Below, one piece after another: positions 7,225 through 43,250 of a stretch of DNA of 64,000 bases; position 1 is the stretch's first letter, and each line of letters opens with the position of its first letter. The notes beneath the pieces are model-generated. The model was not told where the DNA came from, did not search any database, and saw nothing but the letters and a program-made list of their open reading frames with translations. Source of the DNA: Lachnospiraceae bacterium. Lineage in GTDB: Bacteria > Bacillota > Clostridia > Lachnospirales > Lachnospiraceae. Both the position numbers and the translations under genes were made by a program. The DNA is taken from contig JAZLHO010000059.1 in assembly GCA_045616865.1 (NCBI GenBank), forward strand, positions 2,441-66,440, in the 5' to 3' direction.

Positions 7225-7250
7225 GATATGCTTTCAACTATCTGATATAA

Positions 7251-11017: not shown

Positions 11018-12133
11018 ATGTATGATTATCTGATAGTCGGCGCCGGCTTATTTGGGTCAGTTTTCGCACAGCAGGCAAAGGAAATGGGCAGAAGTGTCCT
11101 TGTGATCGATAAAAGACCGAATATTGCCGGGAATATATATACAGAAAAAACAGATGGAATCAATGTGCACAAATACGGTGCACATATCTTCCATACCAAT
11201 AATCATACTGTATGGGAGTATGTTCAGAGATTCGCTGTATTTAACCGTTTTACCAATGCTCCGGTAGCAAACTACAAGGGAGAGCTATTCAGTCTTCCTT
11301 TTAATATGTATACATTTAATAAAATGTGGGGAGTAGTCACTCCTGAAGAAGCCCGCGAAAAAATCGAGCAGCAGAAAGCAGAGGCCGGAATTACTGAACC
11401 GCGCAATCTGGAGGAGCAGGCGATTTCTCTGGTCGGACGTGATATCTTCGAGAAACTGATAAAGGGATATACTGAAAAGCAGTGGGGACGTGATTGCAAG
11501 GATCTGCCTGCATTTATTATTAAAAGACTCCCTGTAAGGTTTACTTTTGATAATAACTATTTCAATGCACTGTTTCAGGGAATCCCTGTCGGCGGATACA
11601 CAGCTATGATTGAAAAAATGCTGGATGGCATCGAGGTTCATCTCAACGAGGACTATCTTGCAGACAAGGCTGCATATGATGCTATGGCTGACAAGGTAAT
11701 CTACACAGGTCCGATAGATGCATACTTTGATTACGAGCTCGGCTATCTGGAATACCGTTCCGTACGCTTTGAAAATGAGCTGCTGGATATGCCGAATTTC
11801 CAGGGTAATGCGGCTGTCAATTACACTGACCGGGAGACACCATGGACCAGAATCATAGAGCATAAATGGTTTGAATTCGGTAAGGATGAAAATGGAAACG
11901 ATCTGCCAAAAACAGTGATAAGCCGGGAATACAGTTCTGAATGGAAGCCCGGAGATGAACCGTATTATCCTGTAAATGACGAAAAAAACGGAGCCCTATA
12001 CAGAAAGTATAAGGCTCTGGCTGATAAAGAAAATAATATTATTTTCGGCGGCCGTCTGGGTGAATATAAGTATTATGATATGGATCAGGTTATTGCCACA
12101 GCACTTGAGCGCAGTGAATTGATTCTGAGTTGA
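11018..12133 (+). CDS. glf: UDP-galactopyranose mutase
   Basis: YDYLIVGAGLFGS FAD fold, GINVHKYGAHIFHTNN, and a C-terminal GGRLGEYKYYDMD. AAGGAG lies 8 nt upstream of the ATG at 11018. Confidence 0.9.
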   Translation: MYDYLIVGAGLFGSVFAQQAKEMGRSVLVIDKRPNIAGNIYTEKTDGINVHKYGAHIFHTNNHTVWEYVQRFAVFNRFTNAPVANYKGELFSLPFNMYTFNKMWGVVTPEEAREKIEQQKAEAGITEPRNLEEQAISLVGRDIFEKLIKGYTEKQWGRDCKDLPAFIIKRLPVRFTFDNNYFNALFQGIPVGGYTAMIEKMLDGIEVHLNEDYLADKAAYDAMADKVIYTGPIDAYFDYELGYLEYRSVRFENELLDMPNFQGNAAVNYTDRETPWTRIIEHKWFEFGKDENGNDLPKTVISREYSSEWKPGDEPYYPVNDEKNGALYRKYKALADKENNIIFGGRLGEYKYYDMDQVIATALERSELILS

Positions 12134-12158
12134 ATGATAGAATAGGGATTATTTCTTT

Positions 12159-13529
12159 TTATTTGTTATCCGTTATATATCTGGCAACATATACTCCGCT
12201 TGCGGATGCATGTGAAAGGGAGTGGGTCACTCCGCTTCCGTCGCCTATGATGAAAAGTCCCTTATGTCTTGTCTCAAGGTTTTCATCCAGCTTTGCCTCC
12301 ATGTTATAGAACTTGGCTTCTACTCCATACAACAGAGTGTCATCATTGGCAGTACCCGGAGCGATCGTATCAAGTGCATAAATCATTTCTATGATACCAT
12401 CGAGAATTCTCTTCGGCAGAACCAGACTAAGATCGCCCGGTGTCGCTGCAAGCGTAGGTCTTACCGTTGATTCCTCTATTCTCTTTACCGTACTTCTTCT
12501 GCCTCTGACCAGATCTCCGAATCTCTGAATCAACACCCCACCACCAAGCATATTTGACAGTCTCGCTATGCTTGTACCGTAGTCATTACTTGACTTGAAC
12601 GGAACAGAAAAATGCTTTGAAACAAGCAGCGCGAAGTTTGTGTTTTCGGTCTTCTTTGAAGGATCTTCAAAGCTGTGTCCGTTAACTGTGATTATACCGT
12701 TGGTATTTTCATTGACTACTATTCCGTGCGGATTCATACAGAATGTTCTTACATCATCCTCGAACTGCTGTGTACGGTATATTATCTTGCTTTCATAAAG
12801 CTGGTCTGTGATATGATCAAAAATAACACTCGGAATTTCTACTCTCACTCCGAGATCGACGCGGTTCGACTCTGTCGGAATTTCAAGATCCTGACATACC
12901 TTTTCCATCCACTTGCTTCCGCTTCGTCCGACTGAAATGATACATCTGTCAGCACATGCGTCTCCGCCATCGTATATGACCTTATATCCGCCGTCTTCCA
13001 TCGCAACTTCAGTGATCTCTGTTTCGAAATAGAAGTCGACCTTTTCTTTTAATTCATCATATATATTACCAAGGACTATATAGTTTATATCTGTTCCGAG
13101 GTGGCGTACACTTGCCTCAAGAAGTGTAAGCTTATGCTGCATACATATACGCTTAAACTCGCTTCCTGATGTTGAGTATAGCTTTGTTCCCTCTCCGCCG
13201 TGGCTGAGGTTGATGCTGTCTACATATTTCATAAGCTCGATAGCCTTGTCTTTTCCGATATGCTCGTACAGTGTTCCGCCGAAATCATTGGTTATGTTAT
13301 ATTTTCCATCAGAAAAGGCTCCTGCTCCGCCGAATCCGCACATGATCTGACAGGTTCCGCAATTGATACAGGACTTTATTTTTACTCCGTCTATCGGACA
13401 CTTCCTTTTTTCAAGTGAGTGTCCTTTTTCAAATATTGCGATATTAAGATTCGGATTAAGCTTTATCATTTCATATGCTGAAAAGATACCTCCCGGTCCT
13501 GCTCCTATTATTATCACATCATATTTCAT
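12159..13529 (-). CDS. FAD-dependent oxidoreductase (COG2509-type)
   Basis: The N-terminal YDVIIIGAGPGG dinucleotide fold followed by a Cys-rich insert (CINCGTCQIMCGFGGAG) is characteristic of the COG2509 family. Confidence 0.65.
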   Translation of the reverse strand: MKYDVIIIGAGPGGIFSAYEMIKLNPNLNIAIFEKGHSLEKRKCPIDGVKIKSCINCGTCQIMCGFGGAGAFSDGKYNITNDFGGTLYEHIGKDKAIELMKYVDSINLSHGGEGTKLYSTSGSEFKRICMQHKLTLLEASVRHLGTDINYIVLGNIYDELKEKVDFYFETEITEVAMEDGGYKVIYDGGDACADRCIISVGRSGSKWMEKVCQDLEIPTESNRVDLGVRVEIPSVIFDHITDQLYESKIIYRTQQFEDDVRTFCMNPHGIVVNENTNGIITVNGHSFEDPSKKTENTNFALLVSKHFSVPFKSSNDYGTSIARLSNMLGGGVLIQRFGDLVRGRRSTVKRIEESTVRPTLAATPGDLSLVLPKRILDGIIEMIYALDTIAPGTANDDTLLYGVEAKFYNMEAKLDENLETRHKGLFIIGDGSGVTHSLSHASASGVYVARYITDNK

Positions 13530-13616: not shown

Positions 13617-15584
13617 TTATTCAAGTTTACATATTATAACCATAGTTGATAAGCCTGCACCTCTGATCACATCGAGATCTGCCGTCATGATTTTCTGTGA
13701 TTTGCCTATATAATCTCCTTCACTGACAAGAACCATGAAGCCTTTACCGCCGAGTTTAACTGTATCAATTCCTACATGAACCAGAAGTTCCTCTCCATTA
13801 TCTGCCTTTATAGTTATTGCATGCTTTGTTTCAGCTATACTTACGACCGTTCCGTCACATGGAGACCATATATTTCCGTTCTCAGGAAGAATACCTATAC
13901 ATTTTCCGAGTTTTCCTGATGAAAATACGGGATCAGGTATCTCTTGCATAGGAATCAGTTCACCGTCTGCAGGCGCACCCGGCTTAAGTCCGTTCTTCTT
14001 ATCTTCAATATTTTTTTCCGCCTTCGCAGTACATTCTCTTATTTGTCTGACCTTTGAAACCGGAACTGATAATTCATCAACTCCTGCTTCGATAAGTCGC
14101 TCTATCATCTCCGTGTCTGCTGCCAGCTGACCGCATATTCCGGTCGTTACCCCGTTTGCATGTCCGGCATGCACGATTTGCTCAATAAGTCTTAACACTG
14201 CTTCATGATGCGGGGTGAAATACCTGTCAAGTCCCTCTTCCTCTCTGTCCAGCGCAAGTGTATACTGAGTCAAGTCATTGGTTCCTATACTGAAAAAACC
14301 AACCTTTTTTGACAGAGTATCGGATATTATTGCCGCTGCCGGGGTCTCTATCATGATACCAAGTTCGGGAATCCTGTAAGGTACCTTCTCTTTCTCAAGC
14401 TCTGCAGCTGCTTCATTTACATGATTCGTGATTTCATCAATCTCCCATTCGGAAGTTATCATAGGAAACATGATCTTCAGATTTCCATGGACACCGGCTC
14501 GCAGCATCGCACGCAGCTGAGTATGAAAGAGCTCTCTCTTTTCAAGTGATATTCTCACTCCGCGAAGACCCAGTGCCGGATTTGCTTCTTCAGGTATATC
14601 AAGCCATCTCACCTTTTTGTCAGATCCGATATCCATGGTCCTGATGATCACTTCCTTATCGCCCATTGCATCCAGAACAGCACTGTATGCCTGGTACTGC
14701 TCTTCCTCGTCGGGAGCTGAATTGCTGCCCAGGAACAGAAACTCGGATCTGAAAAGACCTACTCCGTCTGCTCCTGATTCAAGCAGCTGTGGTATGTCCT
14801 CCGGTCCTGCAATATTTGCATATATTTTAGTTTTACACCGGATGTCTTTCTTTGATTTTCTGCGCTGGATTTTTTCATCAGCAATAACTGTCATTCTCTT
14901 CTCTGCCTCAGCTATCATATCACTGTCAGGATCTATGATCAGGTTCTCTCCATCGATAATGACATATTTGCTTTTCATAGCCGCTGCAGTCGCTTCGGTG
15001 TTTCCATATACATACGGTATTTCCAGATTTCCGGCGAGAATCGAGAGATGCGAGTTTGGCGAACCTTTATCCGTGATGATTCCCCCGATCAGCATCTGAT
15101 CAAACGAAGTCATCTGCGCCGGACTTATATCATACGATACCAGTGCCGAGCGGATCACAAGCTCAGCATCTGTATTTCCGCTTATGGCCTTTATTATCTG
15201 TTCTCCCACTCCTCTTATGTCAGAAGCGCGTGCACGCAGATACTCTGATTCTGCAGTCTCCACCTTCCTTGCATATTCATCAGCTTTATTCTTTACCGCA
15301 TACTCTGCTGTGCAGTTTTCATTCGTAATGTATTCTTTGATCTCCCCCATAAATGACTGATCGTCCAGCAGCATCTGCACCGTTTCCATGATTGCTGCAT
15401 TATCCCCGGAGTATTTAGCATTTGTCATTGAGTTCTTTATTGCATCAATCGCTCTGTCCAGCTTTGCAGTTTCTTCTGCGCAATCTGATGCGGCTTTTTC
15501 GATGTCAGGAGTCGAAGTATTGACAGCATGAACCGGTCCTGCATAGAAACCGTTCTGAGCAATATGGCATATATATTCCATCAT
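13617..15584 (-). CDS. PTS Enzyme I fused to EIIA(Glc-family) domain
   Basis: EI motifs are GSPNSHLSILA (phospho-His), IGTNDLTQYTLA and GICGQ. The C-terminal ~115 aa carry EIIA-Glc motifs (ETKHAITI, HVGIDTVKLGGKGF). AAGGAGGG SD present. Confidence 0.85.
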   Translation of the reverse strand: MMEYICHIAQNGFYAGPVHAVNTSTPDIEKAASDCAEETAKLDRAIDAIKNSMTNAKYSGDNAAIMETVQMLLDDQSFMGEIKEYITNENCTAEYAVKNKADEYARKVETAESEYLRARASDIRGVGEQIIKAISGNTDAELVIRSALVSYDISPAQMTSFDQMLIGGIITDKGSPNSHLSILAGNLEIPYVYGNTEATAAAMKSKYVIIDGENLIIDPDSDMIAEAEKRMTVIADEKIQRRKSKKDIRCKTKIYANIAGPEDIPQLLESGADGVGLFRSEFLFLGSNSAPDEEEQYQAYSAVLDAMGDKEVIIRTMDIGSDKKVRWLDIPEEANPALGLRGVRISLEKRELFHTQLRAMLRAGVHGNLKIMFPMITSEWEIDEITNHVNEAAAELEKEKVPYRIPELGIMIETPAAAIISDTLSKKVGFFSIGTNDLTQYTLALDREEEGLDRYFTPHHEAVLRLIEQIVHAGHANGVTTGICGQLAADTEMIERLIEAGVDELSVPVSKVRQIRECTAKAEKNIEDKKNGLKPGAPADGELIPMQEIPDPVFSSGKLGKCIGILPENGNIWSPCDGTVVSIAETKHAITIKADNGEELLVHVGIDTVKLGGKGFMVLVSEGDYIGKSQKIMTADLDVIRGAGLSTMVIICKLE

Positions 15585-15597: not shown

Positions 15598-17448
15598 TTA
15601 TAATCTTTCTATCAGAAAGCTTCTGATTTCTCCGGCTGCCATCACTGCATCCGGACCCTCAGCCCTGCATTTCAGTTCCGTTCCCTGTACCGCGCCAAGT
15701 GACATCAGCTGCATGACACTTCTGCCATCGGCAGTATGTCCGTCTGCCTCTATCACGAAGCTGCAGTTATATTTACGAATCAGTCCCGATAATTCTCCGG
15801 CCGGTCTTGCATGCATTCCAAGCGGATCCCTGATTATATGTGTAAACTCCTTATCTCCGGTCATGTCAAATATGACCGTCTCTCCATGGTTAATCCTGAC
15901 ATGTGTATTATTCTGAATATCTGATTCCACGTCAGCCGTATTCGCAGCATTTTCCTCTGCGGATTTTTCTTCTGTTGCTCCGTGGTCCACGTTTCCATCC
16001 GGCTCGGGAATCTCAGCATCGCTTACCAGTGCGTTTGTAATGATAAAGCTCATGACATAACTTATCATAAGTCCGATAAGATAGCACAATATGCTTAGCA
16101 GTGGTCCACTGGGTCCCTGTGTCATAACAAATATTCCAAGCAGTCCTGACGGCCCCCATGTCGTTGAAGCAACCTGCATGAGCATTACAAAAGCACCTCC
16201 GAAGCCGGCACCGATTCCTGCGGTAATAAATGGTTTACCCACCGGAAGTGTGACTCCGTATATCAGTGGTTCTCCGACTCCCAGAAATCCGGCCGGAAGT
16301 GCACCTCTGATCACGGAAACCAGCCTCTGACTGTTTTTCTTCTTTGCCTTTTTCATGATAGCAAGAGAAGCTCCGACCTGTCCTGCTCCAGCCATCGCAA
16401 GTGCAGGATAAAGTGTGATAAATCCTATCTCCTGAAGCTGTACTGTATACAGCGCTACCATTCCGTGGTGCATACCTGCTGCAACAAGCGGCAGGAATAA
16501 TGCCGATGCGATATATCCGGTTATCAATCGCACTATGGCGCTTTCAGCCATACATGCTTTTCCAAATACCCATACTATACCGGTGGATACATATCCGAAT
16601 ATAGGCATGATTATCAGTATGTATGGAATCGCCACTATAAGCAGTGACAAAATCGGTGTAAATACTATATCGACACTGTCTGGCATCCTGCTTCTGACTT
16701 TCTTCTCTACTACAGAAAGCACCAATACTCCAATGATGACTGCAAGAACTCCGCCCTTGCCCGTTCTGAGTATAGATCTCAGCGGCTCGGAATCATTATA
16801 CAGACCCAGTATCTGGGCGATGGTATTGATACCGTCCAGTGAAGTGATTAGTCCCAGCATTCCGCCAAGTATCGGTGTCGCTCCGAACCTCTCTGCCGCG
16901 CGATACCCCGCCCATGCTGTGATATATGTCATGAAGGAAGTATTGATCAGCACCAGCAGCGTATATATCATATTCCATATCTTTATGTCTGCGTAGTTTG
17001 GAACAAGCTGACTTATAAGCGAAGAAAGACCTGCGCAAAGTCCCGCAGCGATAACGCCGGGGATCAGTGGAACAAATATATCTCCTATGACTTTAAGTAC
17101 TGATTTTACCTTGTTCTTTTTATTCTTTGCGTTGAGGCTTTCCTTATTCTGCTTCCAGTCACCGGTACTATCGTTTGTCTTTTCATCCGCCGCTGAAGCC
17201 ATGCCCATATCATGACAGATATCTGCATACTTTCTGCTTTTTCCCGGCCCGACCACTATCTCATATGAACACGCTCTGTCATGAACCAGTCCCAGCACAT
17301 CAACAAGCTCTTTAAGTCCCGCTTCATTTACCGGCGTCTCTTCTCTCGTCACTACTCGCAGTCTGGTCATACAGTTGGTAACTGAAATTATGTTTTTTTC
17401 TCCTCCGAGATATTCAATTATCTTACTTACACTGTCCTTCGCGCTCAT
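15598..17448 (-). CDS. murP: PTS EIIB-EIIC (glucose/sucrose superfamily, MurNAc-type by context) fused to a C-terminal HPr domain
   Basis: N-terminal EIIB NCMTRLRV (phospho-Cys), a polytopic EIIC with GVGEPLIYGV, and the last ~90 aa as HPr (GMHARPAG, GRSVMQLMSLG). ATGA overlap with murQ. Confidence 0.8.
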   Translation of the reverse strand: MSAKDSVSKIIEYLGGEKNIISVTNCMTRLRVVTREETPVNEAGLKELVDVLGLVHDRACSYEIVVGPGKSRKYADICHDMGMASAADEKTNDSTGDWKQNKESLNAKNKKNKVKSVLKVIGDIFVPLIPGVIAAGLCAGLSSLISQLVPNYADIKIWNMIYTLLVLINTSFMTYITAWAGYRAAERFGATPILGGMLGLITSLDGINTIAQILGLYNDSEPLRSILRTGKGGVLAVIIGVLVLSVVEKKVRSRMPDSVDIVFTPILSLLIVAIPYILIIMPIFGYVSTGIVWVFGKACMAESAIVRLITGYIASALFLPLVAAGMHHGMVALYTVQLQEIGFITLYPALAMAGAGQVGASLAIMKKAKKKNSQRLVSVIRGALPAGFLGVGEPLIYGVTLPVGKPFITAGIGAGFGGAFVMLMQVASTTWGPSGLLGIFVMTQGPSGPLLSILCYLIGLMISYVMSFIITNALVSDAEIPEPDGNVDHGATEEKSAEENAANTADVESDIQNNTHVRINHGETVIFDMTGDKEFTHIIRDPLGMHARPAGELSGLIRKYNCSFVIEADGHTADGRSVMQLMSLGAVQGTELKCRAEGPDAVMAAGEIRSFLIERL

Positions 17449-22780: not shown

Positions 22781-22789
22781 ATCCTTGAG

Positions 22790-22878
22790 CGCAGAAGGCG
22801 GGATTTGAACCCGCGCGCCGCTATTAACGACCTACTCACTTTCCAGGCGAGCCCCTTCGGCCACTTGGGTACTTCTGC
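22790..22878 (-). tRNA. tRNA-Ser (anticodon GGA)
   Basis: Hand-folded cloverleaf. Acceptor is GCAGAAG/CTTCTGC, anticodon loop CTGGAAA, T-arm GCGGG-TTCAAAT-CCCGC, with a long variable arm. CCA is not encoded. Confidence 0.85.
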
Positions 22879-23018: not shown

Positions 23019-23025
23019 CTTGCCA

Positions 23026-23111
23026 CGCAGAGGATGGGATTCGAACCCATGTGCCCTTGCGGACAAACGGTTTTCAAGACCGCCTCGTTATGACCTCTTC
23101 GATACCTCTGC
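23026..23111 (-). tRNA. tRNA-Ser (anticodon UGA)
   Basis: Hand-folded cloverleaf. Acceptor is GCAGAGG/CCTCTGC, anticodon loop CTTGAAA, T-arm ATGGG-TTCGAAT-CCCAT, with a long variable arm. Confidence 0.85.
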
Positions 23112-23136
23112 AGTTCGTTCAAACGCGAACAGAACT

Positions 23137-23197: not shown

Positions 23198-24607
23198 TCA
23201 GATCATACGCATTCTTACTACACGATCAACAAACTCTGTATTGTTGTCCGTTGCGTCAAAAAGCTCCAGAATGCGTTCTACGGCATCATCTGGTTTCAGT
23301 GAGTTTGTTGCCCTGTGAATGATATTAACAGCATCCTGCTCCTTGCTGCCAAGCAGCAAATCATCTCTGCGGGTTCCGCTCCTTGTGATATCAATTGCAG
23401 GGAATATCCTCTTCTCACTGAGCTTTCTGTCGAGCACAAGCTCCATATTACCGGTTCCCTTGAATTCCTCGAATACTACATCATCCATACGGCTTCCTGT
23501 ATCTACAAGGGCAGTTGCCAGTATGGTCAGAGACCCTCCTTCCCTCATCTTTCTGGCTGCTCCGAAAAACTTCTTCGGCATATGAAGTGCATTTGGATCG
23601 AGGCCTCCTGAGAGGGTTCTTCCGCTGGATGTGACCGTCAGGTTATATGCTCTTGCAAGTCTGGTGATGGAATCCAACAGGATTATGACATCGTCTCCCT
23701 GTTCAACCAGTCTCTTGGCCCTCTCGATTACCATCTCCGAAACCCTCTTATGTCTTTCCGGAAGTTCATCGAAAGTAGAATATATTACTTCAACCTGCTT
23801 ACCTGTTACAGATTCCTTGATATCTGTTACTTCCTCAGGTCTTTCATCGATGAGAAGTATGATGATATGCATCTCCGGTTCATTCTGCAGTACTGCCTGT
23901 GCCACCTGTTTGAGCAGTGTGGTTTTGCCGGCTTTAGGCGGTGATACTATCATTCCTCTCTGACCCTTTCCTATAGGAGAAAGCAGATCGACTATGCGCA
24001 TTGCTGTTGTAGTTCCCCTTACAGTTTCCAGATGTATTCTTTCCTCCGGGAATATTGGAGTCAGATTCTCAAAGTTAGGTCTTCGTAATATCCTGTCGAT
24101 AGTAAGCCCGTTGACAGTCTTTACATTCAGTAGAGCCGAAAATTTTTCATTTGCTCTTTTGCTTCTCTTTATTCCCGAGATGATATCACCGGTTTTCAGA
24201 TTCAGTTTTTTGATCTGATTCGGTGCTACATACACATCCTCCACACCCGGAAGATAATTATCACATCTTATGAATCCGAATCCATCAGGCATGACTTCGA
24301 GAATTCCGTATGCCGGCATCTGCTCCTGTGCGGGATATGCATCTGCCGCATTCAGTCCCGGCCTTCTTCCTGTTTCCTGTTCATTGTTTTGATTTGCATT
24401 TTTCTCCGGGTTCTCCTGTGCGGTCTGCCCCGGCATCTGTTGCTGTGTTTTCAACTGATTATCTTCCTTCGGAGCAGTACTTTCTGCATGTAAAGCCAGG
24501 GCCTCAATAAGATCCGACTTCTTCATGGTTGATACACCCTTGATGTCCTCACCCTTAGCCAGGTCTCTTAACTGTGTCAATGATAAAGTTGCCAGTTTTT
24601 CTCTCAT
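23198..24607 (-). CDS. rho: Transcription termination factor Rho with Q/N-rich N-terminal insert
   Basis: Rho_N helix-hairpin, CSD-like [14 protein letters not shown], Walker A PPKAGKT, and the RecA-type ATPase core. ATGA overlap with rarA. Confidence 0.95.
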
Positions 24608-25938
24608 CTTTTCTTCCCCTTCTTTACTCCTTTTATATAATCAAGCCATTCACTTATCTCTTTTTCTTTTCCGTTATCTGACGGAACATAGAATCCGCCG
24701 CTTACTCCATTTGGCAGATATTGCTGATCTACATAATGGTTTGGATAATCATGCGCATATTTGTATCCTGACATTCGCTCAATCTCATTATCCTCATTGT
24801 AGTGATAGTCTCTCAGATGCGCCGGTATGGTCTCGCTTATAGAAGTCTCCACTGCAGCTTCCGCCGCATCGATTGCCATAACTACTGAATTTGATTTTGG
24901 TGCGCATGCTACATATGAAGCAGCATGGGCCAGTATGATTCTGGATTCCGGCATGCCTACTCTCTCCACTGCCTGTGCCGCTGCAGCAGCCACTACCAGT
25001 GCCATCGGATCGGCATTTCCCACATCTTCACTCGCACATATCATGATTCGTCTTGCGATAAACTTTACATCTTCTCCGGCATAAAGCATACGGGCTACAT
25101 AATACACAGCTGCATCCGGATCCGATCCACGCATGCTTTTGATAAGTGCTGATGCCGCGTCATAATGATTGTCTCCGCCTTTATCGTATCTGAGCTGCCG
25201 TTTTTGTATGCACTCTGCTGCAACAACCATATCGAAATGTATCTTTCCGTCCTTTGCGACAGGAGTCGTGAGTACTCCGAGCTCGACTGCATTGATTGCA
25301 TTTCTCGCATCGCCGTTGGATGCATCTGCAAGGAACTCTGCCGCATCCTCATCAAGCACTACATTATATCCGCCCATTCCTTTCTCTGCATCTGTGACAG
25401 CCCTGTAAATGAGTGTCAGTATATCTTCCTTTGATAACGGCTTCAGTTCAAATACCGTGGATCTTGACAGCAGCGCGGAGTTGACCTCAAAGAACGGATT
25501 TTCCGTCGTTGCTCCGATCAGTATGATCGTTCCGTCCTCTACAAACGGAAGCAGATAATCCTGCTGCGCTTTGTTGAAGCGATGTATCTCATCGATAAAA
25601 AGCACTGTACGTTTTCCGTACATTCCCATATCCTGCTTTGCAGCTGCCGTGACCTCCTCCATATCCTTCTTGCCGGAGGTGGTAGCATTAATCTGCTTGA
25701 ATACAGCACTCGTTGAATTTGCAATGACCCTCGCCAGTGTAGTCTTGCCTGTTCCCGGAGGTCCGTAAAATATGACTGAACTTATCTTATCGGCTTTTAT
25801 CGCTCTGTAAAGCAGCTTGTCTTCTCCGATGATATGTTTCTGTCCCACCACTTCTTCAAGCGAAGCAGGCCTCATGCGCAGTGCAAGAGGTGCGTCCTTC
25901 TGCATGTTTTCTTCTCTCATGTAATCAAAGAGATCCAT
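24604..25938 (-). CDS. rarA: Replication-associated recombination protein A (MgsA/RarA AAA+ ATPase)
   Basis: LRMRP..L.E.VGQ.H, GPPGTGKTTLA, DEIHRFNK and the C-terminal MgsA domain. AAGGAG SD present. Confidence 0.9.
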   Translation of the reverse strand: MDLFDYMREENMQKDAPLALRMRPASLEEVVGQKHIIGEDKLLYRAIKADKISSVIFYGPPGTGKTTLARVIANSTSAVFKQINATTSGKKDMEEVTAAAKQDMGMYGKRTVLFIDEIHRFNKAQQDYLLPFVEDGTIILIGATTENPFFEVNSALLSRSTVFELKPLSKEDILTLIYRAVTDAEKGMGGYNVVLDEDAAEFLADASNGDARNAINAVELGVLTTPVAKDGKIHFDMVVAAECIQKRQLRYDKGGDNHYDAASALIKSMRGSDPDAAVYYVARMLYAGEDVKFIARRIMICASEDVGNADPMALVVAAAAAQAVERVGMPESRIILAHAASYVACAPKSNSVVMAIDAAEAAVETSISETIPAHLRDYHYNEDNEIERMSGYKYAHDYPNHYVDQQYLPNGVSGGFYVPSDNGKEKEISEWLDYIKGVKKGKKR

Positions 25939-28459
25939 GGATAATCTCCTTTATCATTTCATTTACAGCCCTGACTTCATCATAAAATCCCTTTGCGCTC
26001 ATAAGTCTGCTGCCGCTTGATCTGATGATGATCTGCTCTATGCCGTCACTTGTAGCTACTGTGATGTTATACTTTGAAGCATTCTGGTGTGTAAATGTTT
26101 CTATGTAGTGATCTGCCGTTTCCGCTGTTGCCGTAAATATCACATGTATATTGTGGTAGTCCAGCATCTCTGTTTTATGATGCTCGAGTCTGTACGCATC
26201 AAATACCACCGCTGTCTCTATCTCACGATATCCGGAATAGTTGCTTACTATATCGAGCAGCTTCAGACGCGCCGAATCTATATTCACATCAGCCAGTGCT
26301 TTAAGCTCAGGCCACGCAAATATGATATTGTAACCATCTATCAGAAAGTATTCAGGTTTTATGATCTGGGGTTTCCTGTGACTTACAGAACTGGAATTAC
26401 TGTTTTCGTAAGTATAAACCTTCTTTGCCCGCCGCGCAACTTTATTCTTTTTATTGGCCCCGTTCGCAGCCTTTAATATCGCGTCTACCTCTTCCGTAGA
26501 TATCCACTCATCCACCTGGGCTGTGCGTACTGCGCTCATCGGCACTCCCGCATCATCACGTTTTGTACCCAGCACATTTTCGACATGCATCATCGATTTA
26601 ACTTCATTCCAAGGCACATATACTCCGGCACCATGTGAACAGAATACCGAACCGCAGGGATTCCTCAGATCTGCTTCCGGATCGTAAGTACATCCGTCCA
26701 GCACTTCCTCCTGATTATGGCACACATCATATCCTCTCAGGTTCAGGGAAATGTTCCCGTATCCTCTGGTATACGCATTCAGTTCATTCGGATAATCCCA
26801 GAGCCTGGATACCGGCGCATATCCGCATATAGTTGCTGTATCATTTATCAGTTCAGGTGCCTGACACTTTCCGCTCATTGCTTCTATATCAGTCATCGCG
26901 CGTCCGACATATTCCTGCGGCATAGTCATGACGAAGTTATAGTATGGTTCAAGCAGTCTGACTTCCCCTGCGGCTCTTGCCTCCATCAGTCCTTCTCTTA
27001 TTGCTCTGTATGTAGACTGTCTGAAATCTCCGCCTTCAGTATGCTTTACATGAGCTCGTCCGCCCTTTACTGTTATCACCACATCTGTCAGTTCGGAACC
27101 TGTCAGCACTCCTGCGTGTCTTTTCTCAAGTATATGTGTGACTATAAGTCTCTGCCAGTTCCTTGCCAGCTCATCCTCACTGACATTGGATACAGCAGTT
27201 ATTCCGCTGCCTCTTTCTCCCGGTGTCATAATCAGATGAACCTCTGCATAGTGTCTGAGGGGTTCGAAATGACCCACTCCATATGCCATGCCTGACAGTG
27301 TCTCTTTATATACTATGCTTCCTGCTCCGAATTCAATATTCAGTCCGAATCGTTCCTTTACTACTTCCTTTAGTATCTCAAGCTGTATCAGACCCATCAC
27401 TCTCACATGTATCTCTCTGGTATCCTCATTCCATGTGAATTTAAGCTCAGGGTTTTCTTCCTCTATCTCTTTAAGGTAATCCATGACTACTATCGGAGAT
27501 GCTCCATCGTTTATAAGCACCTGATATGTCATGACAGGTTCTATCTCGGGAGTCGGTGCATCATCACAGTTGATTCCCTGGCCCGGATAGGTTTCTGTCA
27601 GTCCGGCGACAGTGCACAGATCTCCCGCATATATCTCGGTTCCTTCTTCGATCCCGCTTACCTTATCATTTCCGATTTTATCGCGTACCTTCAGACTTCC
27701 TCCCAGTATCTTCATATGAGTGAGTCTGTTATGCTTATCATCATGAGTTATTTTATATACTCTGGCTGCGAATTCATCATCGTATTCTATATTTGACATG
27801 TATCCGGCCATACCCGAGAGGAGTTCCTTCACGCCTTCATTTTTCAGCGCTGCCCCAAAATATACCGGATAGATTTTTCTTTCTGCGATAGCTCTGATCA
27901 CATCGGTTTCATCAAGCTTCCCTGATGCAAGATAATCTTCCATCATCTTTTCATCACAGCCCGCTATGCCTTCCATATCCATATCGGTAAAGTTGATGCA
28001 ATCAGATGAAAGCTTATTTCTGATCATATTCATAAGCTCATCTTTGCTTCCTTCATATCGGTCCATCTTATTGACAAAGATAAATGCCGGGACATCGTAT
28101 CTTTCAAGCAGCCTGAATAATGTAAGTGTGTGTCCCTGCACTCCCTCCGGGGCTGATACTATAAGAATCGCATAATCAAGAACAGAAAGTGTCCTTTCCA
28201 TCTCCGCTGAAAAGTCCGTATGTCCCGGAGTGTCAAGCAGCATGAATTTTCTTCCGGATACCTCAAATGAAGCACGGCTTGAAAATATGGTTATGCCTCG
28301 TGCCCTTTCAAGTTCATGAGTATCCAGACAGGTATCACCGCTGTCTACGCGGCCCGCCCGTCTGATACTTCCTGAATCGTACAATATATTTTCCGATAAT
28401 GTGGTTTTTCCGGCATCAACATGTGCCAGTATTCCGATGGTAATCATAGATGTGATCAA
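25925..28459 (-). CDS. TetM/EF-G-like translational GTPase fused to a C-terminal Rae1/YacP-type NYN ribonuclease domain
   Basis: G motifs AHVDAGKT, RGITI, DTPGH and NKMD, with an EF-G-like length to about aa 640. The last 142 aa carry LIDGYNIIFAWPELK, VVFDA, ETAD and VATSD, matching B. subtilis Rae1/YacP. The start may be TTG at 28459 or ATG at 28447. Confidence 0.8.
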   Translation of the reverse strand: MITSMITIGILAHVDAGKTTLSENILYDSGSIRRAGRVDSGDTCLDTHELERARGITIFSSRASFEVSGRKFMLLDTPGHTDFSAEMERTLSVLDYAILIVSAPEGVQGHTLTLFRLLERYDVPAFIFVNKMDRYEGSKDELMNMIRNKLSSDCINFTDMDMEGIAGCDEKMMEDYLASGKLDETDVIRAIAERKIYPVYFGAALKNEGVKELLSGMAGYMSNIEYDDEFAARVYKITHDDKHNRLTHMKILGGSLKVRDKIGNDKVSGIEEGTEIYAGDLCTVAGLTETYPGQGINCDDAPTPEIEPVMTYQVLINDGASPIVVMDYLKEIEEENPELKFTWNEDTREIHVRVMGLIQLEILKEVVKERFGLNIEFGAGSIVYKETLSGMAYGVGHFEPLRHYAEVHLIMTPGERGSGITAVSNVSEDELARNWQRLIVTHILEKRHAGVLTGSELTDVVITVKGGRAHVKHTEGGDFRQSTYRAIREGLMEARAAGEVRLLEPYYNFVMTMPQEYVGRAMTDIEAMSGKCQAPELINDTATICGYAPVSRLWDYPNELNAYTRGYGNISLNLRGYDVCHNQEEVLDGCTYDPEADLRNPCGSVFCSHGAGVYVPWNEVKSMMHVENVLGTKRDDAGVPMSAVRTAQVDEWISTEEVDAILKAANGANKKNKVARRAKKVYTYENSNSSSVSHRKPQIIKPEYFLIDGYNIIFAWPELKALADVNIDSARLKLLDIVSNYSGYREIETAVVFDAYRLEHHKTEMLDYHNIHVIFTATAETADHYIETFTHQNASKYNITVATSDGIEQIIIRSSGSRLMSAKGFYDEVRAVNEMIKEIIHGSL

Positions 28460-28465
28460 GTAGAA

Positions 28466-29002
28466 TTATTTTCTTTTCCAGGTGGTAAATCTGTAATGAA
28501 TGCCCTCCCACTCATTGTCATGGCCTTCTTCCGTCATTTCCCACTCTCCGGATGCTTCAAGATCAGGATAATATACATCCGGTTTATCTTTGCAGTCATT
28601 GATCGTTACCAGACATGTGTCACAGTATGGAAGCATGATCCTGTAAATGGTTGCTCCGCCGATCACATATACATCCTCCGGTGGATATGGCTTTGCCGCT
28701 TCCAGTGCTTCATCTATGGAATGGACATAAATAAGCTCTGTCTTATAGCCTGCCTCCCTGGCAGCCTTTGCTGCAGCTACTGACTCCTGTTTGATTTTTT
28801 TATCATCATCAATGAGTACGATATTGATCCTGTTTTTCAGCGGTGCCATCCCGGGAAAGCTCTCAAGTGTTGTGCTTCCCATGATGACTACAGCATCCTT
28901 TGTGGTCTCACGGAAGAACTTCATATCTCCCGGAATATTTACAAGCAGGTCTCCGTTTTTACCGATTCCCCACTGCTCACTGACATTTACTATTTCTTTC
29001 AT
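28466..29002 (-). CDS. folA: Dihydrofolate reductase
   Basis: WGIGKNGDLL...D..FF...T...VIMGSTTLES and GGATIY motifs, directly downstream of thyA. ATG at 29002 is preferred over the TTG-extended ORF. Confidence 0.85.
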   Translation of the reverse strand: MKEIVNVSEQWGIGKNGDLLVNIPGDMKFFRETTKDAVVIMGSTTLESFPGMAPLKNRINIVLIDDDKKIKQESVAAAKAAREAGYKTELIYVHSIDEALEAAKPYPPEDVYVIGGATIYRIMLPYCDTCLVTINDCKDKPDVYYPDLEASGEWEMTEEGHDNEWEGIHYRFTTWKRK

Positions 29003-29018
29003 GTTTTTTCTCTCTTTA

Positions 29019-29867
29019 CTATATTGCAATAGGAATATCCTTTATCTGTTCGTGTGTCTCATAGCCTTCGACATGTACATCCTCAGGAGTGAAGTCATAG
29101 AAATTTTTGATATCCGGTGTCAGCCATACCTTCGGTGCCGGCAGCGGCTCTCTTCTGATGAGCTCCTCGATGATCGGGACATGGCGGTCATATATGTGAC
29201 AGTCTGCGATCACATGCACGAGCTCTCCGACCTCCATATCACAGACCTGTGCGATCATCATAAGCAGTATTGAATACTGAACCACATTCCAGTTGTTTGC
29301 TGCAAGCACATCCTGCGAACGCTGATTGAGTATTCCGTTCAGTACGAGCTTTCCGTTCTCTTTATTCTTTGTAACATTAAATGTCATCGAATAAGCACAC
29401 GGGTAGAGATTCATCTCATGCAGATCCTGGAAATTATAAAGATTCGTAAGTATGCGTCTGCTGTATGGATTGTGCTTCAGATCCCAGATGACGCGATCTA
29501 TCATATCGAATTCGCCTTCTTTATAGATGTGCTTAACTCCCATCTGATATCCGTATGCCTTACCGATTGAACCGTCCTCATCTGCCCATTCGTCCCATAT
29601 ATGTGATTTAAGATCATGAATGTTGTTTGATTTTCTCTGCCATATCCACAGGATCTCATCGGTTGCAGATTTGATGGCTGTCCTTCTGAGTGTCAATGCA
29701 GGGAATTCCTCACCCGGTTTATATCGGTTGACCACACCGAATCTCTTTATTGTGTACGCAAGTGTACCATCCGGCCAGTGCGGACGCACCTTCTCGCCCT
29801 GAGTGTCTGTTCCGTTATCTATGATATCTCTGCACATATCTATAAAAATTTTATCTGCGTATGACAT
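29019..29867 (-). CDS. thyA: Thymidylate synthase
   Basis: ThyA-like throughout (RRIL.NLYN, LYPCAYS active-site Cys, QRSQDV, ADCHIYD). GGAGGA SD present. Confidence 0.9.
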   Translation of the reverse strand: MSYADKIFIDMCRDIIDNGTDTQGEKVRPHWPDGTLAYTIKRFGVVNRYKPGEEFPALTLRRTAIKSATDEILWIWQRKSNNIHDLKSHIWDEWADEDGSIGKAYGYQMGVKHIYKEGEFDMIDRVIWDLKHNPYSRRILTNLYNFQDLHEMNLYPCAYSMTFNVTKNKENGKLVLNGILNQRSQDVLAANNWNVVQYSILLMMIAQVCDMEVGELVHVIADCHIYDRHVPIIEELIRREPLPAPKVWLTPDIKNFYDFTPEDVHVEGYETHEQIKDIPIAI

Positions 29868-29914: not shown

Positions 29915-31258
29915 TTATCTCAGTTCTTCAAGTAATTCCCTTCCTGCATCTATTATAAGCTCTGCCACTCCTGATCTGAAGATGGAGCTTCTTGATTCAT
30001 ATCCGCCCTCATCATAGGCTTCCTTCATCGGGAAGTAACCCATATATCCGTTGGTAATACATGTTACCAGTATATTTTCGTAGCCCTGTGTGAGTTCTCT
30101 GATTGCCACATTGATTCCGTTAAAAGGTTCTCCCGGTATGCCTAAAAGTGCTACCGGTCCAATCCTTACAGCTGATAATGTAAGTTCGAAGAACTCGGGA
30201 CCATTTTCCAGGTTTATCATTCTCTCAGCTTCCGCAACGACCGTCGTAAGCATCATTCCTTCGAAAGGTATCTCATCGTCTTTACCTGCCTTATGAAGTT
30301 CCTCATACTTATATGCAAGCTCCAGTTCTTCAGCGGTTGGCATATTTGACGGGATTCTGATAGTTTTTGATGCTGCCTTAATCGAATCAACCTCACAGAA
30401 CGCAGCTTTGTCAAACTTCTGCAAAATTCCGCCGGTTACTACTCTGCCGATATATTTTGCATGGTTATAGCCACGTGACACGGCATCGAAATCATTGAAC
30501 ATGTCATTAAAATCTCCACCCTTGGGATGAACATTGACATGATTGATATCTCCCTGTGCGCCGTTCAGTACCAGACATTTCACTCCATCAAGTGCTTTCT
30601 CTGTAATACGTCTTGCGAAGCCGGGCCAGTCTGCTGAGACCTTGCTGCCCCCGACTACATCCGGATGATTTGCAAATGTTGCAAGTACTATATCGTCTCC
30701 GTCTTTTCTTGCGAATCGCACTACATTGACATGATCGTCGATATCTCCGATAGGTGCAACGATATCAGGATTATTGACACCCGGGTTTGTTTGTACGCTT
30801 CCGTCTTTCATTCTGAAACGTCTTATGAAGCTTACTCCGGGAGCTTTTCCTCTGCCCCATCCCATATGAGATTCTCTGAGATCTTCTATTGCAAGAACTG
30901 CAGCTTCGGTCATTTTTCCATCGACCCACTTTCTGTAGTCCCTTGTGTCCTCTCCCTCAAATCCCTCACCGATCGCGGGTGCTGTATGAGTATGTGTGGC
31001 TCCGATATATATATTGGTATATGGAACACCTGTGGCCTTTTCGATGCTTCTTCTAAATCCTGTAAACTGCTCTGTGATATTCACGCCACAGCTGTCGATG
31101 CTTATGATAAGTATCTTTGTTTCGTCATTTTCGATTGCGATACAGCATACTTCCAGTGGATCAAGTACACCCTCTACGAATCTGTCTTTGTAATATCCGT
31201 CGATCGGAAGTCCAAGCGGCGGTGTAATATCTGTTCTTGAATAACCTGCTCTTAACAT
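29915..31258 (-). CDS. Neutral/alkaline ceramidase-like (N-acyl amidohydrolase fold) protein
   Basis: The AGYSRTDITPP...G and GATHTHTAP motifs are typical of bacterial members of the non-lysosomal ceramidase family. AGGAGG lies 5 nt upstream of the ATG at 31258. Confidence 0.55.
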   Translation of the reverse strand: MLRAGYSRTDITPPLGLPIDGYYKDRFVEGVLDPLEVCCIAIENDETKILIISIDSCGVNITEQFTGFRRSIEKATGVPYTNIYIGATHTHTAPAIGEGFEGEDTRDYRKWVDGKMTEAAVLAIEDLRESHMGWGRGKAPGVSFIRRFRMKDGSVQTNPGVNNPDIVAPIGDIDDHVNVVRFARKDGDDIVLATFANHPDVVGGSKVSADWPGFARRITEKALDGVKCLVLNGAQGDINHVNVHPKGGDFNDMFNDFDAVSRGYNHAKYIGRVVTGGILQKFDKAAFCEVDSIKAASKTIRIPSNMPTAEELELAYKYEELHKAGKDDEIPFEGMMLTTVVAEAERMINLENGPEFFELTLSAVRIGPVALLGIPGEPFNGINVAIRELTQGYENILVTCITNGYMGYFPMKEAYDEGGYESRSSIFRSGVAELIIDAGRELLEELR

Positions 31259-31348
31259 CTCTGCCTCCTGATACAGTCTTAGGTTAACCAAAGGTCTGCC
31301 TTTTTATTTAAAGCCACAGGCTTTTACCTGTGGCTTGATTTAGTTTTA

Positions 31349-40487: not shown

Positions 40488-40643
40488 AAAACAGTTCCTC
40501 CTGATATTTATTATCGTACGGTGATATCCCGCACTTATCATTCAACATAGATATATCACAATAGAAAACAAGTGTCAAAGAATATCGTGAAATATGTTCA
40601 AATAATCAAAAAAAGAAGTCCTCAAGACTTCTTAATCACTGAA

Positions 40644-40714
40644 CAGGGGAAGAGGGATTCGAACCCCCATCGGCGGTTTTGGAGACCGTAGCTCTACCAT
40701 TGAACTATTCCCCT
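40644..40714 (-). tRNA. tRNA-Trp (anticodon CCA)
   Basis: Hand-folded cloverleaf. Acceptor is AGGGGAA/TTCCCCT, anticodon loop CTCCAAA, T-arm GGGGG-TTCGAAT-CCCTC. CCA is not encoded. Confidence 0.85.
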
Positions 40715-40813
40715 ATCCATATACGGGTGCTCTTACGGCACCCGCATATATTATCACATTCTATTAATCATGTCAAATACAAATGCTGTTTATGCAGCCT
40801 TTCTGTAATGATA

Positions 40814-43240
40814 TCAGCCTTTATACTCAACCATAAGCATAGTCATATCATCGAACTGTTCAGCCTCTCCCACGAAAGCATCTACATCCTTACGGACTCC
40901 CTTAAGTATCGCTTCAGGGCCGTCATCGGGATGAGCATTCAGGTATGTGAGTAATCTCTCTTCACCATAAAGCTCCTGAGCGATGTTCTGAGCCTCAACT
41001 ATTCCGTCAGTATAAAGATATATCTTGTCTCCAGGATTGAGATCAAGCCCCTGCATGCGGTAGTTGACACCCTCCATGCCCGCGAGCACAAATCCGACTT
41101 TGGATTTCAGATACGACCATCCCTCACCCTTCCTGTAAACTACAGGAGGATTGTGTCCTGCATTTGCAAACTCAACATGTCCGGTTTTGATATCCAGAAC
41201 TCCCTGCCATGCTGTAACGAACATCTCTGCTTCATTATTTACGCATAGCTTGCTGTTGGACATCGTAAATGCCTTATCAACACTCAGACCTGCTGTCGTG
41301 AAGTCATTGATCATAGTCTTGGCCTGCATCATAAACATGGCTGCAGGTATTCCTTTTCCTGAAACATCAGCAACAATAAACGCCAGCTTGTTTTCTTCAG
41401 GCATATAAAAATCGTAGAAATCTCCTCCGACCTCCCTTGCGGCATCCATAGTAGCATAGATGTCAAACTCCGTCTTATCCGCGAAAGCATGGAAGTTGGA
41501 TGGAAGCGCTGAAATCTGGATGCTCTTGGCAAATTCAAGCTCTGCATCTATTCTTGCTGCAGCTTCGGCAATATACTCCTTAAGTCTGCCGACTGTGGTA
41601 TTGATTTCATTGGACAATGTATTAAACTCAAGCGTCGTACGAACATCTACCACCTCGTCAAGATCGCCTGCTGTGATCCTTTCCAGGCTGTCATTAACCT
41701 TTTTCAGTCTCTTAACTACTACGGTATTAACCCCGAAGAAGATAGCCGCAAACATGAATGCGAATATCATGATCTCGCTGAAGACATTCATATAGATATT
41801 GAAATCTCTGCTCAGCATGGCTTCCTTCTTTAGATAAACACCTATAATGGTATATATATCCTCAGAAAGGAACATACAGAAGGAATCTTCACCGAAAGCT
41901 GTCTGTTCATACAGGCTTAATGGTGACATATCCTCCCATACCCATAAACCCGTGGTCATAAGATGCCTGCCGACATATGACTGATCTGCACAGCTTGTAA
42001 CCCTGTTTTTGCTGTCAACAACAACCAGAAGTCCGGTATTACCTATGTGTCTGTTCTTCGTAACTGAATAAATGGAATCCTCAATCTTGTCAAAGAATTT
42101 TGTATCATCCACTCCAACCTGAATCACTCCGCCGTCGGATAAGCTTGCGCCTGCATACTTACGTTTTATTCTGTGATCCATCGAAAGAGGCTCAAATCCC
42201 TGCACCATAACGGAATCACTGTTGACCAGCTTCAGGAATTCCTGGGATTGTGTTCCTGAGTGCATGTCGTATCCAACAAAAGAACTGTTGGTACTTTCTG
42301 TTATGATGCCATATTTATCAATAATATTGACCTCAGTCACCCCATACCATTTGGCTACTGTTTCGAGATCTCTCATATTGCCTGTTTCGTATTCTTTTGC
42401 TACATCAACAGCAGTATTCATCAGCCATGCGTCTGCAGTATCATTGATTTCATCTGACGCATCCTTAATACTGGTAGTCAGAATCTTCTCGACACTTTTC
42501 TTTGACTGATTTGTCTGAATAACATATGAGAGTGTTGATGTGGCTAAAAAAGCCGCAACAACTATGAGCAGCAGGAAAAACTGTATTTTTTCAGAAATGG
42601 TCTTTTTTGACTGGACAAGCTTTTCGCCCTGCTTACGGATGGATATCCTGTTCAGCAGTGCAAGTGCCGCAGATGTAACCGCAAGAGCAAATGCATTGAC
42701 CAATATCATCGGCATCGTGCATATCTTCAATATTTCGAGAGCCTGAGCCGCATCATTCATATGAGTGATAAAGACCATCATCATATGGAATGATTCCATG
42801 ATGACACCAATCAGAAATGATATATGCCAGCCCGGATTTCTTTCTTCAAAAATATATTTTCTGATAACCGCCGCATATATACCTGCGAGAAATGTCGATA
42901 CTGTGCACGCCACCTTGGTATACACTCCTATTCCGTATACCTCTGCGGCAAACCATCTGTATGCTGCACCCAGGACGCCGGCAATAATTCCAGACGGGCC
43001 TCCGAAAAACAGCCCGGCACAAAGTGGAGCGGCATCTCTGGCATTAACCGTAGCTCCGCCTATATCCACTCCAAATGCCGTACCGTAAATAGCTGCAACG
43101 CCAAATACAACTCCTATGATTGCCTGCTGAATCCAGTATTTAAGACCGGAGAAAGACGTCGTCCTCTGAATCAGATAGAAGCCTATTGACATTATGAATG
43201 GAATCATAGCCGATCCCAATAATTTCAGATATATTTCCAT
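40814..43240 (-). CDS. Membrane sensor PP2C phosphatase (5TM LytS-type domain, extracellular Cache-like domain, HAMP, SpoIIE/PP2C)
   Basis: N-terminal 5TMR-LYT-like helices (NARDAAPLCAGLFFGGPSG), a roughly 270-aa extracytoplasmic segment, a second TM plus HAMP, and a C-terminal SpoIIE-type GGDFYD...DGIVEA domain. Confidence 0.75.
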   Translation of the reverse strand: MEIYLKLLGSAMIPFIMSIGFYLIQRTTSFSGLKYWIQQAIIGVVFGVAAIYGTAFGVDIGGATVNARDAAPLCAGLFFGGPSGIIAGVLGAAYRWFAAEVYGIGVYTKVACTVSTFLAGIYAAVIRKYIFEERNPGWHISFLIGVIMESFHMMMVFITHMNDAAQALEILKICTMPMILVNAFALAVTSAALALLNRISIRKQGEKLVQSKKTISEKIQFFLLLIVVAAFLATSTLSYVIQTNQSKKSVEKILTTSIKDASDEINDTADAWLMNTAVDVAKEYETGNMRDLETVAKWYGVTEVNIIDKYGIITESTNSSFVGYDMHSGTQSQEFLKLVNSDSVMVQGFEPLSMDHRIKRKYAGASLSDGGVIQVGVDDTKFFDKIEDSIYSVTKNRHIGNTGLLVVVDSKNRVTSCADQSYVGRHLMTTGLWVWEDMSPLSLYEQTAFGEDSFCMFLSEDIYTIIGVYLKKEAMLSRDFNIYMNVFSEIMIFAFMFAAIFFGVNTVVVKRLKKVNDSLERITAGDLDEVVDVRTTLEFNTLSNEINTTVGRLKEYIAEAAARIDAELEFAKSIQISALPSNFHAFADKTEFDIYATMDAAREVGGDFYDFYMPEENKLAFIVADVSGKGIPAAMFMMQAKTMINDFTTAGLSVDKAFTMSNSKLCVNNEAEMFVTAWQGVLDIKTGHVEFANAGHNPPVVYRKGEGWSYLKSKVGFVLAGMEGVNYRMQGLDLNPGDKIYLYTDGIVEAQNIAQELYGEERLLTYLNAHPDDGPEAILKGVRKDVDAFVGEAEQFDDMTMLMVEYKG

Positions 43241-43250
43241 CAAATATTAA

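Follow-up and report, generated by a model that had tools for sequence, protein, structure and literature searches.

The DNA considered here is a 64,000-nucleotide stretch of contig JAZLHO010000059.1 from a Lachnospiraceae bacterium (the whole stretch is hereafter called the window), and the element of interest is a gene on its minus strand, at 25925-28459, whose predicted product is an EF-G/Tet-like translational GTPase, a flexible tether, and a Rae1-type nuclease in one chain. The gene is a single unbroken open reading frame (ORF) of 844 codons with a TTG start; ORF calling in the window thus agreed with an earlier prediction made from the letters alone (hereafter the original prediction), which had claimed one uninterrupted frame at this position. 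An ATG at 28447, four codons past the TTG, is where close homologues begin (MITIGILAHVDAGKT), and for that reason the true N-terminus is probably M5 in the 844-residue numbering used throughout, with a product of 840 amino acids. No internal methionine lies ahead of the C-terminal NYN domain. The Pfam families that the original prediction expected in the protein, GTP_EFTU, EFG_III, EFG_IV, EFG_C, and, at residues 706-838, NYN_YacP, were all found.

The C-terminal part, residues 703-844 (25928..26353, minus strand, as are all features of the gene), was assigned as a Rae1/YacP-type NYN endoribonuclease domain by Pfam, PDB, and Foldseek comparisons. Pfam NYN_YacP (PF05991) matched residues 706-838 with an E-value of 3e-42 and 144.9 bits against a gathering threshold of 24.6, and it matched the last 142 amino acids alone with an E-value of 1.1e-43. 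A phmmer comparison of the C-terminal 211 residues with the PDB recovered only Bacillus subtilis YacP/Rae1 (5MQ8/5MQ9; E 1.7e-16), with 49 of 133 positions identical (37%). When residue equivalences were taken from alignment to the PDB sequence, D708, D754, D783, and D805 corresponded to Rae1 D7, D53, D81, and D104, and all four are invariant in the 81 homologues aligned; the motif-for-motif match to Rae1/YacP that had been proposed for the last 142 amino acids was therefore confirmed, with the quoted pairs aligning as described and the acidic active-site residues intact. The structural model of the C-terminal part matched 5MQ9_B (Foldseek E 3.9e-10; target-normalized template modeling score 0.76; root-mean-square deviation 2.4 Å over 141 columns), and Foldseek returned no significant PDB match to this model besides Rae1. 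The window protein covers positions 2-136 of the 166-position NYN_YacP profile, its own clade covers 1-138, and other fused members cover 1-165. By score, acidic residues, and predicted fold the domain is a member of the NYN_YacP/Rae1 family, lacking in this clade the C-terminal tail at profile positions ~139-166. A hidden Markov model of the NYN domain searched against the six-frame translation of the 64-kb window found the fused copy only and no stand-alone yacP, and the annotated ORFs did not include a canonical cysS-mrnC-yacO-yacP operon.

The G domain at the other end of the protein (residues 5-221; 27797..28447) was recognized by Pfam GTP_EFTU (9e-53), and its motifs G1 AHVDAGKT (residues 12-19), G2 RGITI (54-58), G3 DTPGH (76-80), with the catalytic His80, and G4 NKMD (130-133), all four of which had already been read from the sequence, are invariant across the 81 aligned homologues. 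It is followed by a domain II beta-barrel (residues 222-300; 27560..27796) that was placed by homologue alignment and by strands in the AlphaFold2 (AF2) model with a predicted local distance difference test (pLDDT) score of ~88; the Pfam model PF22042 EF-G_D2 matches other fusion members and not the window protein. Domain III (residues 307-378; 27326..27541; EFG_III, 2.5e-08), domain IV (residues 390-494; 26978..27292; EFG_IV at 399-494, 7.3e-13, together with TetO and EF-G alignments), and domain V (residues 501-583; 26711..26959; EFG_C, 1.1e-17) complete the GTPase part, and EFG_III, EFG_IV, and EFG_C all exceed their own Pfam cutoffs. Domain IV reaches the decoding center in EF-G and TetM, and here it has the highest mean column conservation (0.83), with means of 0.77 for the NYN domain, 0.74 for a module that follows domain V, and 0.32-0.37 for most of the tether. 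The tip loop of domain IV, GGRAHVKHTEGGDFR (residues 466-480), is invariant across the fusion family, and H470 within it aligns with the conserved tip histidine of EF-G (DGSYH), whereas the counterpart of EF-G domain IV loop I (SGGRGQ) is 4 residues shorter and different in sequence. The full-length AF2 model adopts the EF-G/TetM five-domain fold (Foldseek E ~1e-48 to 1e-42 against EF-G and TetM chains). Motifs, domain order, and predicted fold place this part of the protein in the EF-G/EF2-type five-domain translational GTPase superfamily. Judged from the alignments, both ends of the protein are under strong purifying constraint, and both halves look catalytically competent.

Between domain V and the nuclease lie two further segments. 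The first is a post-domain-V module at residues ~584-627 (26579..26710), delimited by conservation and the AF2 model and lacking a Pfam model; conservation begins at G576, and residues 576-627 correspond to window positions 26579-26734. Its motif, GY..C.N...YD...D..NP.GSVFC.HGAG..V.W.EV...MHVE, spans ~45 amino acids, is specific to the family, and is conserved in all 81 aligned members, with C580, C607, and H625 invariant and H609 present in at least 90%. These four residues could possibly form a metal site. Since confident prediction of the module requires the GTPase body (pLDDT 80-86 for the full-length protein versus 33-52 when that body is left out), the module probably packs against the body; the low confidence of the isolated model made a fold search on the module uninformative. 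When residues 560-670 were searched against protein representatives at 50% identity, 815 clusters matched, 444 of them at E <= 1e-10. Every one of the long proteins listed has the module at ~570-720 with a further ~200 residues beyond it, as in the fused layout, and the 150 matches listed comprised such proteins and short fragments, with no clear unfused GTPase carrying the module.

The second segment is the tether (residues 628-702; 26354..26578; pLDDT < 50), which corresponds to the basic, serine-rich linker of the original prediction and is predicted to be disordered except for a short conserved helix at ~653-667 (W..TEE[IV]D.IL). Its length in the 81 homologues is 71-99 amino acids (median 76), with little conservation of sequence and a distal half that is basic in every case (KKNKVARRAKK...; median net charge +7). 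Because length is held constant while sequence drifts, and because the distal half stays basic, the tether fits a spacer of required reach with a non-specific affinity for RNA.

The same architecture is widespread. In a collection of 5.8 billion proteins, the best 120 hits are all single polypeptides of 838-921 amino acids with the five Pfam domains seen here. When one genome from each GTDB species was scanned, at least 600 stretches matched, and at least 595 of them encode a relative; the best 80 of these 595 were inspected, and all 80 species genomes carry the fused gene, with matches that cover both the post-V module and the NYN domain. Carriers within the Lachnospiraceae include Roseburia, Lachnospira, Dorea, Enterocloster, Hungatella, Butyrivibrio, and Robinsoniella, and other carriers include Eubacterium, Clostridium, Ruminococcus, Acetivibrio, Anaerovorax, Fusibacter, Epulonipiscium, and Desulfitobacterium/Desulfosporosinus; those close relatives that have names come from metagenome-assembled genomes of Lachnospiraceae. 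The alignment of 81 homologues used throughout comprises the window protein and 80 others, all with the fusion, at 51-85% identity to it. Within this alignment the clade of the window protein (13 of 81 sequences; 838-852 amino acids) has a domain II ~15-25 residues shorter than that of most of the family and lacks the ~25-45 residues at the C-terminal end of the NYN_YacP profile, a tail that is present in most members, while the catalytic core is retained.

In this genome the fusion gene is the third gene of a minus-strand operon, thyA-folA-fusion-rarA-rho, whose junctions are tight or overlapping. Upstream of it lie ORFs for thyA (29019-29867) and folA (28466-29029), the latter with its stop 6 nt before the fusion TTG; downstream lie rarA/mgsA (24604-25938), with 14 nt shared with the fusion gene, and rho (23198-24607), which overlaps rarA as ATGA, so that the junctions are those described in the original prediction. 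A promoter-like site is located at 29980-29952, just upstream of thyA, and no strong minus-strand terminator was seen before the end of rho. Genomic context elsewhere was examined at six places with Pfam-annotated gene calls and by clustering all ORFs from the 80 loci. The locus of a homologue 72% identical (L005) has the identical gene order, including Thymidylat_synt and DHFR_1, and that of a homologue 59% identical (L003) keeps rarA-rho two genes downstream; at the other places inspected the neighbors are unrelated. No neighbor family occurs in more than 9 of the 80 loci, the apparent clusters being shadow ORFs inside the gene itself, and a conserved partner gene or operon was therefore rejected. 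Since no neighbor recurs, the protein appears to have no obligate partner and to be self-contained. A mobile-element setting was seen neither in the six places inspected nor around the gene in this genome. The original prediction had placed the gene in a housekeeping operon rather than a mobile element, and this holds for the present genome and its clade but does not extend across the 80 genomes, where no neighbor is shared by more than 9 loci.

Several other features of these loci were recorded. At L003, a MutS2-type gene (5999-8434, minus strand; MutS_V plus Smr, the type to which the ribosome-collision sensor RqcU belongs) is situated two genes upstream of the homologue at 10001-12520, on the opposite strand; it was not seen in the other loci inspected, and the adjacency is probably a coincidence. 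In the window, a 458-aa ORF directly upstream of thyA (29915-31291, minus strand) has a sub-threshold match to neutral/alkaline ceramidase (28.5 bits versus 32.1), and the ceramidase family is also faintly matched at the equivalent position in L005. Directly downstream of rho are tRNA-Ser(GGA) and tRNA-Ser(TGA) (22789-22878 and 23025-23112, minus strand), a pair provided with a separate strong promoter-like site (23165-23137; 11 of 12 matches) and with terminator-like hairpins, and a tRNA-Trp(CCA) (40643-40715, minus strand) lies further upstream in the window. A 6S/SsrS RNA gene is found at 54640-54824 (minus strand; Rfam RF00013, 50.7 bits versus a gathering score of 46.4). An unusual arrangement of phosphotransferase system (PTS) fusions occupies 13617-15584 and 15598-17448, both on the minus strand: an Enzyme I plus EIIA protein (PEP-utilizers plus PTS_EIIA_1) and an EIIB-EIIC permease with a C-terminal HPr. 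A HerA-like helicase is encoded at 57628-59295 (minus strand; PF05872 HerA_C, E 1e-206), and a predicted SpoIIE-type phosphatase with an N-terminal 5TM-LYT membrane domain at 40814-43243 (minus strand) indicates a spore-forming member of the Firmicutes.

Fusions of a TetM-like protein to NYN_YacP were reported from Clostridia in a bioinformatic study that suggested a test for RNase activity on rRNA (Atkinson, 2015; PMC4342817), and were reported again with their role called unclear (Matelska et al., 2017; PMC5499597); about ten species were counted in these papers. The original prediction had described the architecture as lacking experimental characterization, and a literature search likewise found no experimental study of the fusion, but the fusion itself had been reported in 2015 and 2017. 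The family is thus known and abundant in databases, and the window protein is a member from a slightly reduced subclade. What is new here is the post-V module, the constant-length basic tether, and the non-Tet signature of domain IV, together with the absence of a conserved neighbor, a much wider distribution, and evidence that the tetracycline-resistance label lacks support. Current knowledge of stand-alone Rae1 has also changed: it is a translation-dependent mRNA endonuclease that acts at stalled or collided ribosomes and feeds transfer-messenger RNA (tmRNA) rescue (Deves et al., 2025; PMC12407103; 2026 preprint, PMC13622287). The preprint describes Rae1-dependent tmRNA tagging after ribosome collisions and notes that no ribosome-bound Rae1 structure exists (PMC13622287), and the earlier model in which Rae1 acts in the ribosomal A site, on which the original prediction relied, was explicitly revised (Deves et al., 2025; PMC12407103). 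With this revision, the simple idea of a GTPase that places the nuclease in the A site has lost its premise; in the structural model, moreover, the NYN domain is attached through a disordered tether of ~75 residues and has no rigid orientation toward that site.

Considered together, the most plausible reading of the predicted architecture, by analogy with Rae1, is that of a GTPase-guided device for nuclease delivery. The chances that the gene encodes a single-chain, ribosome-targeted endoribonuclease which would cut mRNA are judged to be about even. The GTP-bound protein would bind a ribosome that has ceased to advance, at its factor-binding site, where the conserved domain IV would probe the decoding center. 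Through the tether the nuclease would then be kept close to the mRNA at a high local concentration, perhaps on the entry side of the bound ribosome or at the interface with a neighboring collided ribosome. Cleavage would yield a truncated message destined for tmRNA rescue and for mRNA decay by exonucleases, by analogy with stand-alone Rae1, and GTP hydrolysis would release the factor. The GTPase module would in this way replace or supplement whatever recruits free Rae1 to ribosomes. Points counted in favor of this mechanism are the intact motifs, the EF-G/TetM fold combined with a C-terminal match to Rae1 only, the constraint on both halves, the constant tether length with its basic distal half, the integrity of the fusion in all 80 genomes and in the best 120 database hits, the lack of a partner gene, the loss in this clade of the Rae1 C-terminal tail while the catalytic core was kept, and the action of Rae1 itself on mRNA at stalled or collided ribosomes.

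Other points weigh against this reading. Ribosome binding, GTPase activity, RNA cleavage, and the identity of the substrate are at present predictions, and the full-length AF2 model has a predicted template modeling score of only 0.53, which leaves the placement of the domains relative to each other without a prediction. Cleavage by free Rae1 seems to occur at the tail of the stalled ribosome, on the mRNA exit side, far from the site at which EF-G-type factors bind. The geometry would consequently work only if the tether is long enough, if a neighboring ribosome is involved in the cut, or if the cut is positioned differently from that of free Rae1. Each of these can be envisaged: 75 residues may suffice for the distance; in a collision, the factor might sit on the ribosome behind, which has its mRNA entry next to the exit of the leading ribosome; or the fused enzyme might cleave elsewhere than free Rae1 does. 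A stand-alone yacP may exist in the same genomes as well, and the substrate could equally be rRNA or tRNA.

This last point leads to an alternative in which the nuclease targets rRNA or tRNA, with the protein serving ribosome maturation or quality control as a GTPase-gated factor, or else inactivating ribosomes or taking them apart, for instance by cutting 16S rRNA near the decoding center or a ribosome-bound tRNA. That domain IV, the part with decoding-center reach in EF-G and TetM, is the most conserved segment of the protein would suit such a role, the basic tether could bind rRNA, and NYN_YacP, which shares an operon with mrnC and yacO, was on that basis originally predicted to function in rRNA/tRNA processing (Matelska et al., 2017; PMC5499597). 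A disordered tether of 75 amino acids is, however, a better fit to proximity cutting of an exposed single strand than to a precise cut in structured rRNA, and the alternative is regarded as rather unlikely. A growth-arrest, toxin-like, or anti-phage effector that shuts down translation during stress or infection by cutting RNA on ribosomes indiscriminately would likewise be served by a self-contained nuclease with its own ribosome-targeting module, and the Rae1 preprint speculates that mRNA cleavage at collided ribosomes could be a defense against invader transcripts (PMC13622287). Defense-system membership was nonetheless rejected, as no model in PADLOC-DB matched at E <= 0.01, and neither an antitoxin-like gene nor any other conserved neighbor was found across the 80 loci. 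The gene is, moreover, broadly conserved and chromosomal in many Clostridia, and lies in a housekeeping operon here, unlike patchily distributed defense islands, so that a role of this kind is considered highly improbable.

Two further explanations concern the nature of the gene itself. One takes the single ORF for an artifact, either two genes merged by sequencing or assembly error or a decaying pseudogene, and nothing was found to favor it: most of the 80 inspected loci carry single ORFs of 779-1029 amino acids, the short ones being contig-end truncations or, at two loci (L039 and L072), probable assembly splits, where a shorter NYN-bearing ORF may reflect local assembly errors. Against this, the same continuous architecture recurs in the best 120 hits and in 80 of 80 species genomes, the catalytic residues are invariant in both halves, and no internal methionine would start a separate NYN protein; an assembly or frameshift artifact was rejected on these grounds and is given practically no credence. 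The explanation that the protein is a genuine tetracycline ribosomal protection protein, with the nuclease as an accessory that contributes to resistance, was proposed together with placement of the fusion proteins in the Tet subfamily (Atkinson, 2015; PMC4342817), and is implied by most database names, such as 'TetM/TetW/TetO/TetS family tetracycline resistance ribosomal protection protein' (a Tet-family label is carried, for example, by the family members MBQ0146124.1 and WP_015924569.1, the latter from Ruminiclostridium cellulolyticum H10); other names in use are 'translation factor GTPase family protein' and 'small GTP-binding protein'. TetO and TetM are indeed the best overall PDB matches (E 4.5e-72 and 3.8e-70, versus 3.6e-61 for EF-G), and tet_protect (NF012153) is the best NCBIfam model. 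Its score of 406.9 bits nevertheless falls well below the curated cutoff of 775, as do those of tet_protect_M_W (NF033148; 287.5 versus 1100) and Tet(M) (NF012155; 248 versus 1420). Loop III of domain IV, the tetracycline-displacing element of Tet proteins (PMC4750697), reads RAHVKHTEGG, invariant in the fusion family, instead of the equally long LYYSPVSTPA of TetO (YGLYYSPVSTPADFR), and the Tet signature L505-Y-Y-S508-P509-V510 is absent from the aligned loop. Domain IV alone is closer to EF-G (E 1e-6) than to TetM (1.2e-4) or TetO (1.1e-3) by phmmer at a relaxed threshold. Alignments to TetO and TetM stop at residue ~578-581, beyond which a different conserved module and ~215 further residues follow, and the short C-terminal extension with its functional C-terminal helix that ends the ~640-aa Tet proteins is not matched. 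The lack of a mobile-element setting in the six places inspected and of a recurrent neighbor across the 80 loci also argues against a resistance gene. By the available tests the protein is thus not a member of the Tet ribosomal protection proteins, nor, with 247.3 bits against a cutoff of 659.4 for the EF-G model TIGR00484, of EF-G proper; the resemblance to TetM/TetO and EF-G noted in the original prediction stands for the overall, Tet-like sequence and fails on the Tet family measures of score and loop III. Tetracycline protection is accordingly regarded as quite improbable and the resistance label, as judged from these comparisons, as unsupported. Genes that bear this label score far beneath the NCBIfam thresholds and are devoid of the Tet loop III signature, and counting them toward resistance may inflate estimates of the gut resistome.

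Among the possibilities weighed, nuclease delivery guided by the GTPase therefore remains the most plausible, and its most developed form would be a GTP-gated mRNA endonuclease that senses the state of the ribosome, in effect a one-polypeptide bacterial no-go-decay factor. In such a factor the EF-G/Tet-derived module would recognize a ribosome that is stalled or that trails in a collision, and the Rae1 nuclease would cut the message, passing the ribosomes to tmRNA. This proposal is put forward tentatively, as one that falls somewhat short of an even chance. If it is true, the fusion would represent a new functional class, with a translational GTPase as a nuclease-delivery factor, the first of its kind, and would show how Rae1-type nucleases engage ribosomes. 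In 2025-2026 the cutting of mRNA at stalled or collided ribosomes of Gram-positive bacteria, which feeds tmRNA rescue, emerged as the work of Rae1, and these results raise the relevance of a fusion present in many gut Lachnospiraceae and other Clostridia. A natural covalent joining of the Rae1 core to a factor-site GTPase also offers a ready-made, probably more stable complex for cryo-electron microscopy and biochemistry.

Compared with known systems, the window protein stands closest to the fusions reported earlier (Atkinson, 2015; Matelska et al., 2017), with which it shares domain order and taxon and of which it is a member (51-85% identical to 80 homologues). It differs from most members in the shortened domain II of its clade and in lacking the ~25-45-aa NYN_YacP tail, and neither the post-V module nor the constant-length tether nor the signature of domain IV appears in the two earlier studies. 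With B. subtilis Rae1 (5MQ8/5MQ9) it has in common the NYN_YacP fold and four acidic residues at 37% identity, but Rae1 is a free single domain of ~170 amino acids with a C-terminal tail, whereas here the core, without that tail, forms the C-terminus of an 844-aa GTPase. A module for recruitment to the ribosome is presumably part of the fusion itself. Tet(M) and Tet(O) (3J9Y, 4V6V) share with it the five-domain layout without a large G' insertion and a highly similar G domain; the fusion scores below the NCBIfam cutoffs, has another loop III, continues after domain V with a module, a tether, and a nuclease, and is encoded by a chromosomal gene. EF-G shares the five-domain fold, provides the best match to domain IV, and has the tip histidine that corresponds to H470, whereas the fusion falls below the EF-G model cutoff, has a domain IV loop I shorter by 4 residues, and bears a C-terminal extension of ~260 residues. 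SmrB of Escherichia coli, Cue2/NONU-1 of eukaryotes, and Dom34-Hbs1 are functional analogues only, and no homology to them is claimed: the folds are unrelated (SMR versus NYN), and none of these systems joins a GTPase and a nuclease in one polypeptide. What they have in common with the activity proposed here is the concept, in which a nuclease or a GTPase-delivered A-site probe acts at stalled or collided ribosomes and leads to mRNA cleavage and ribosome rescue.

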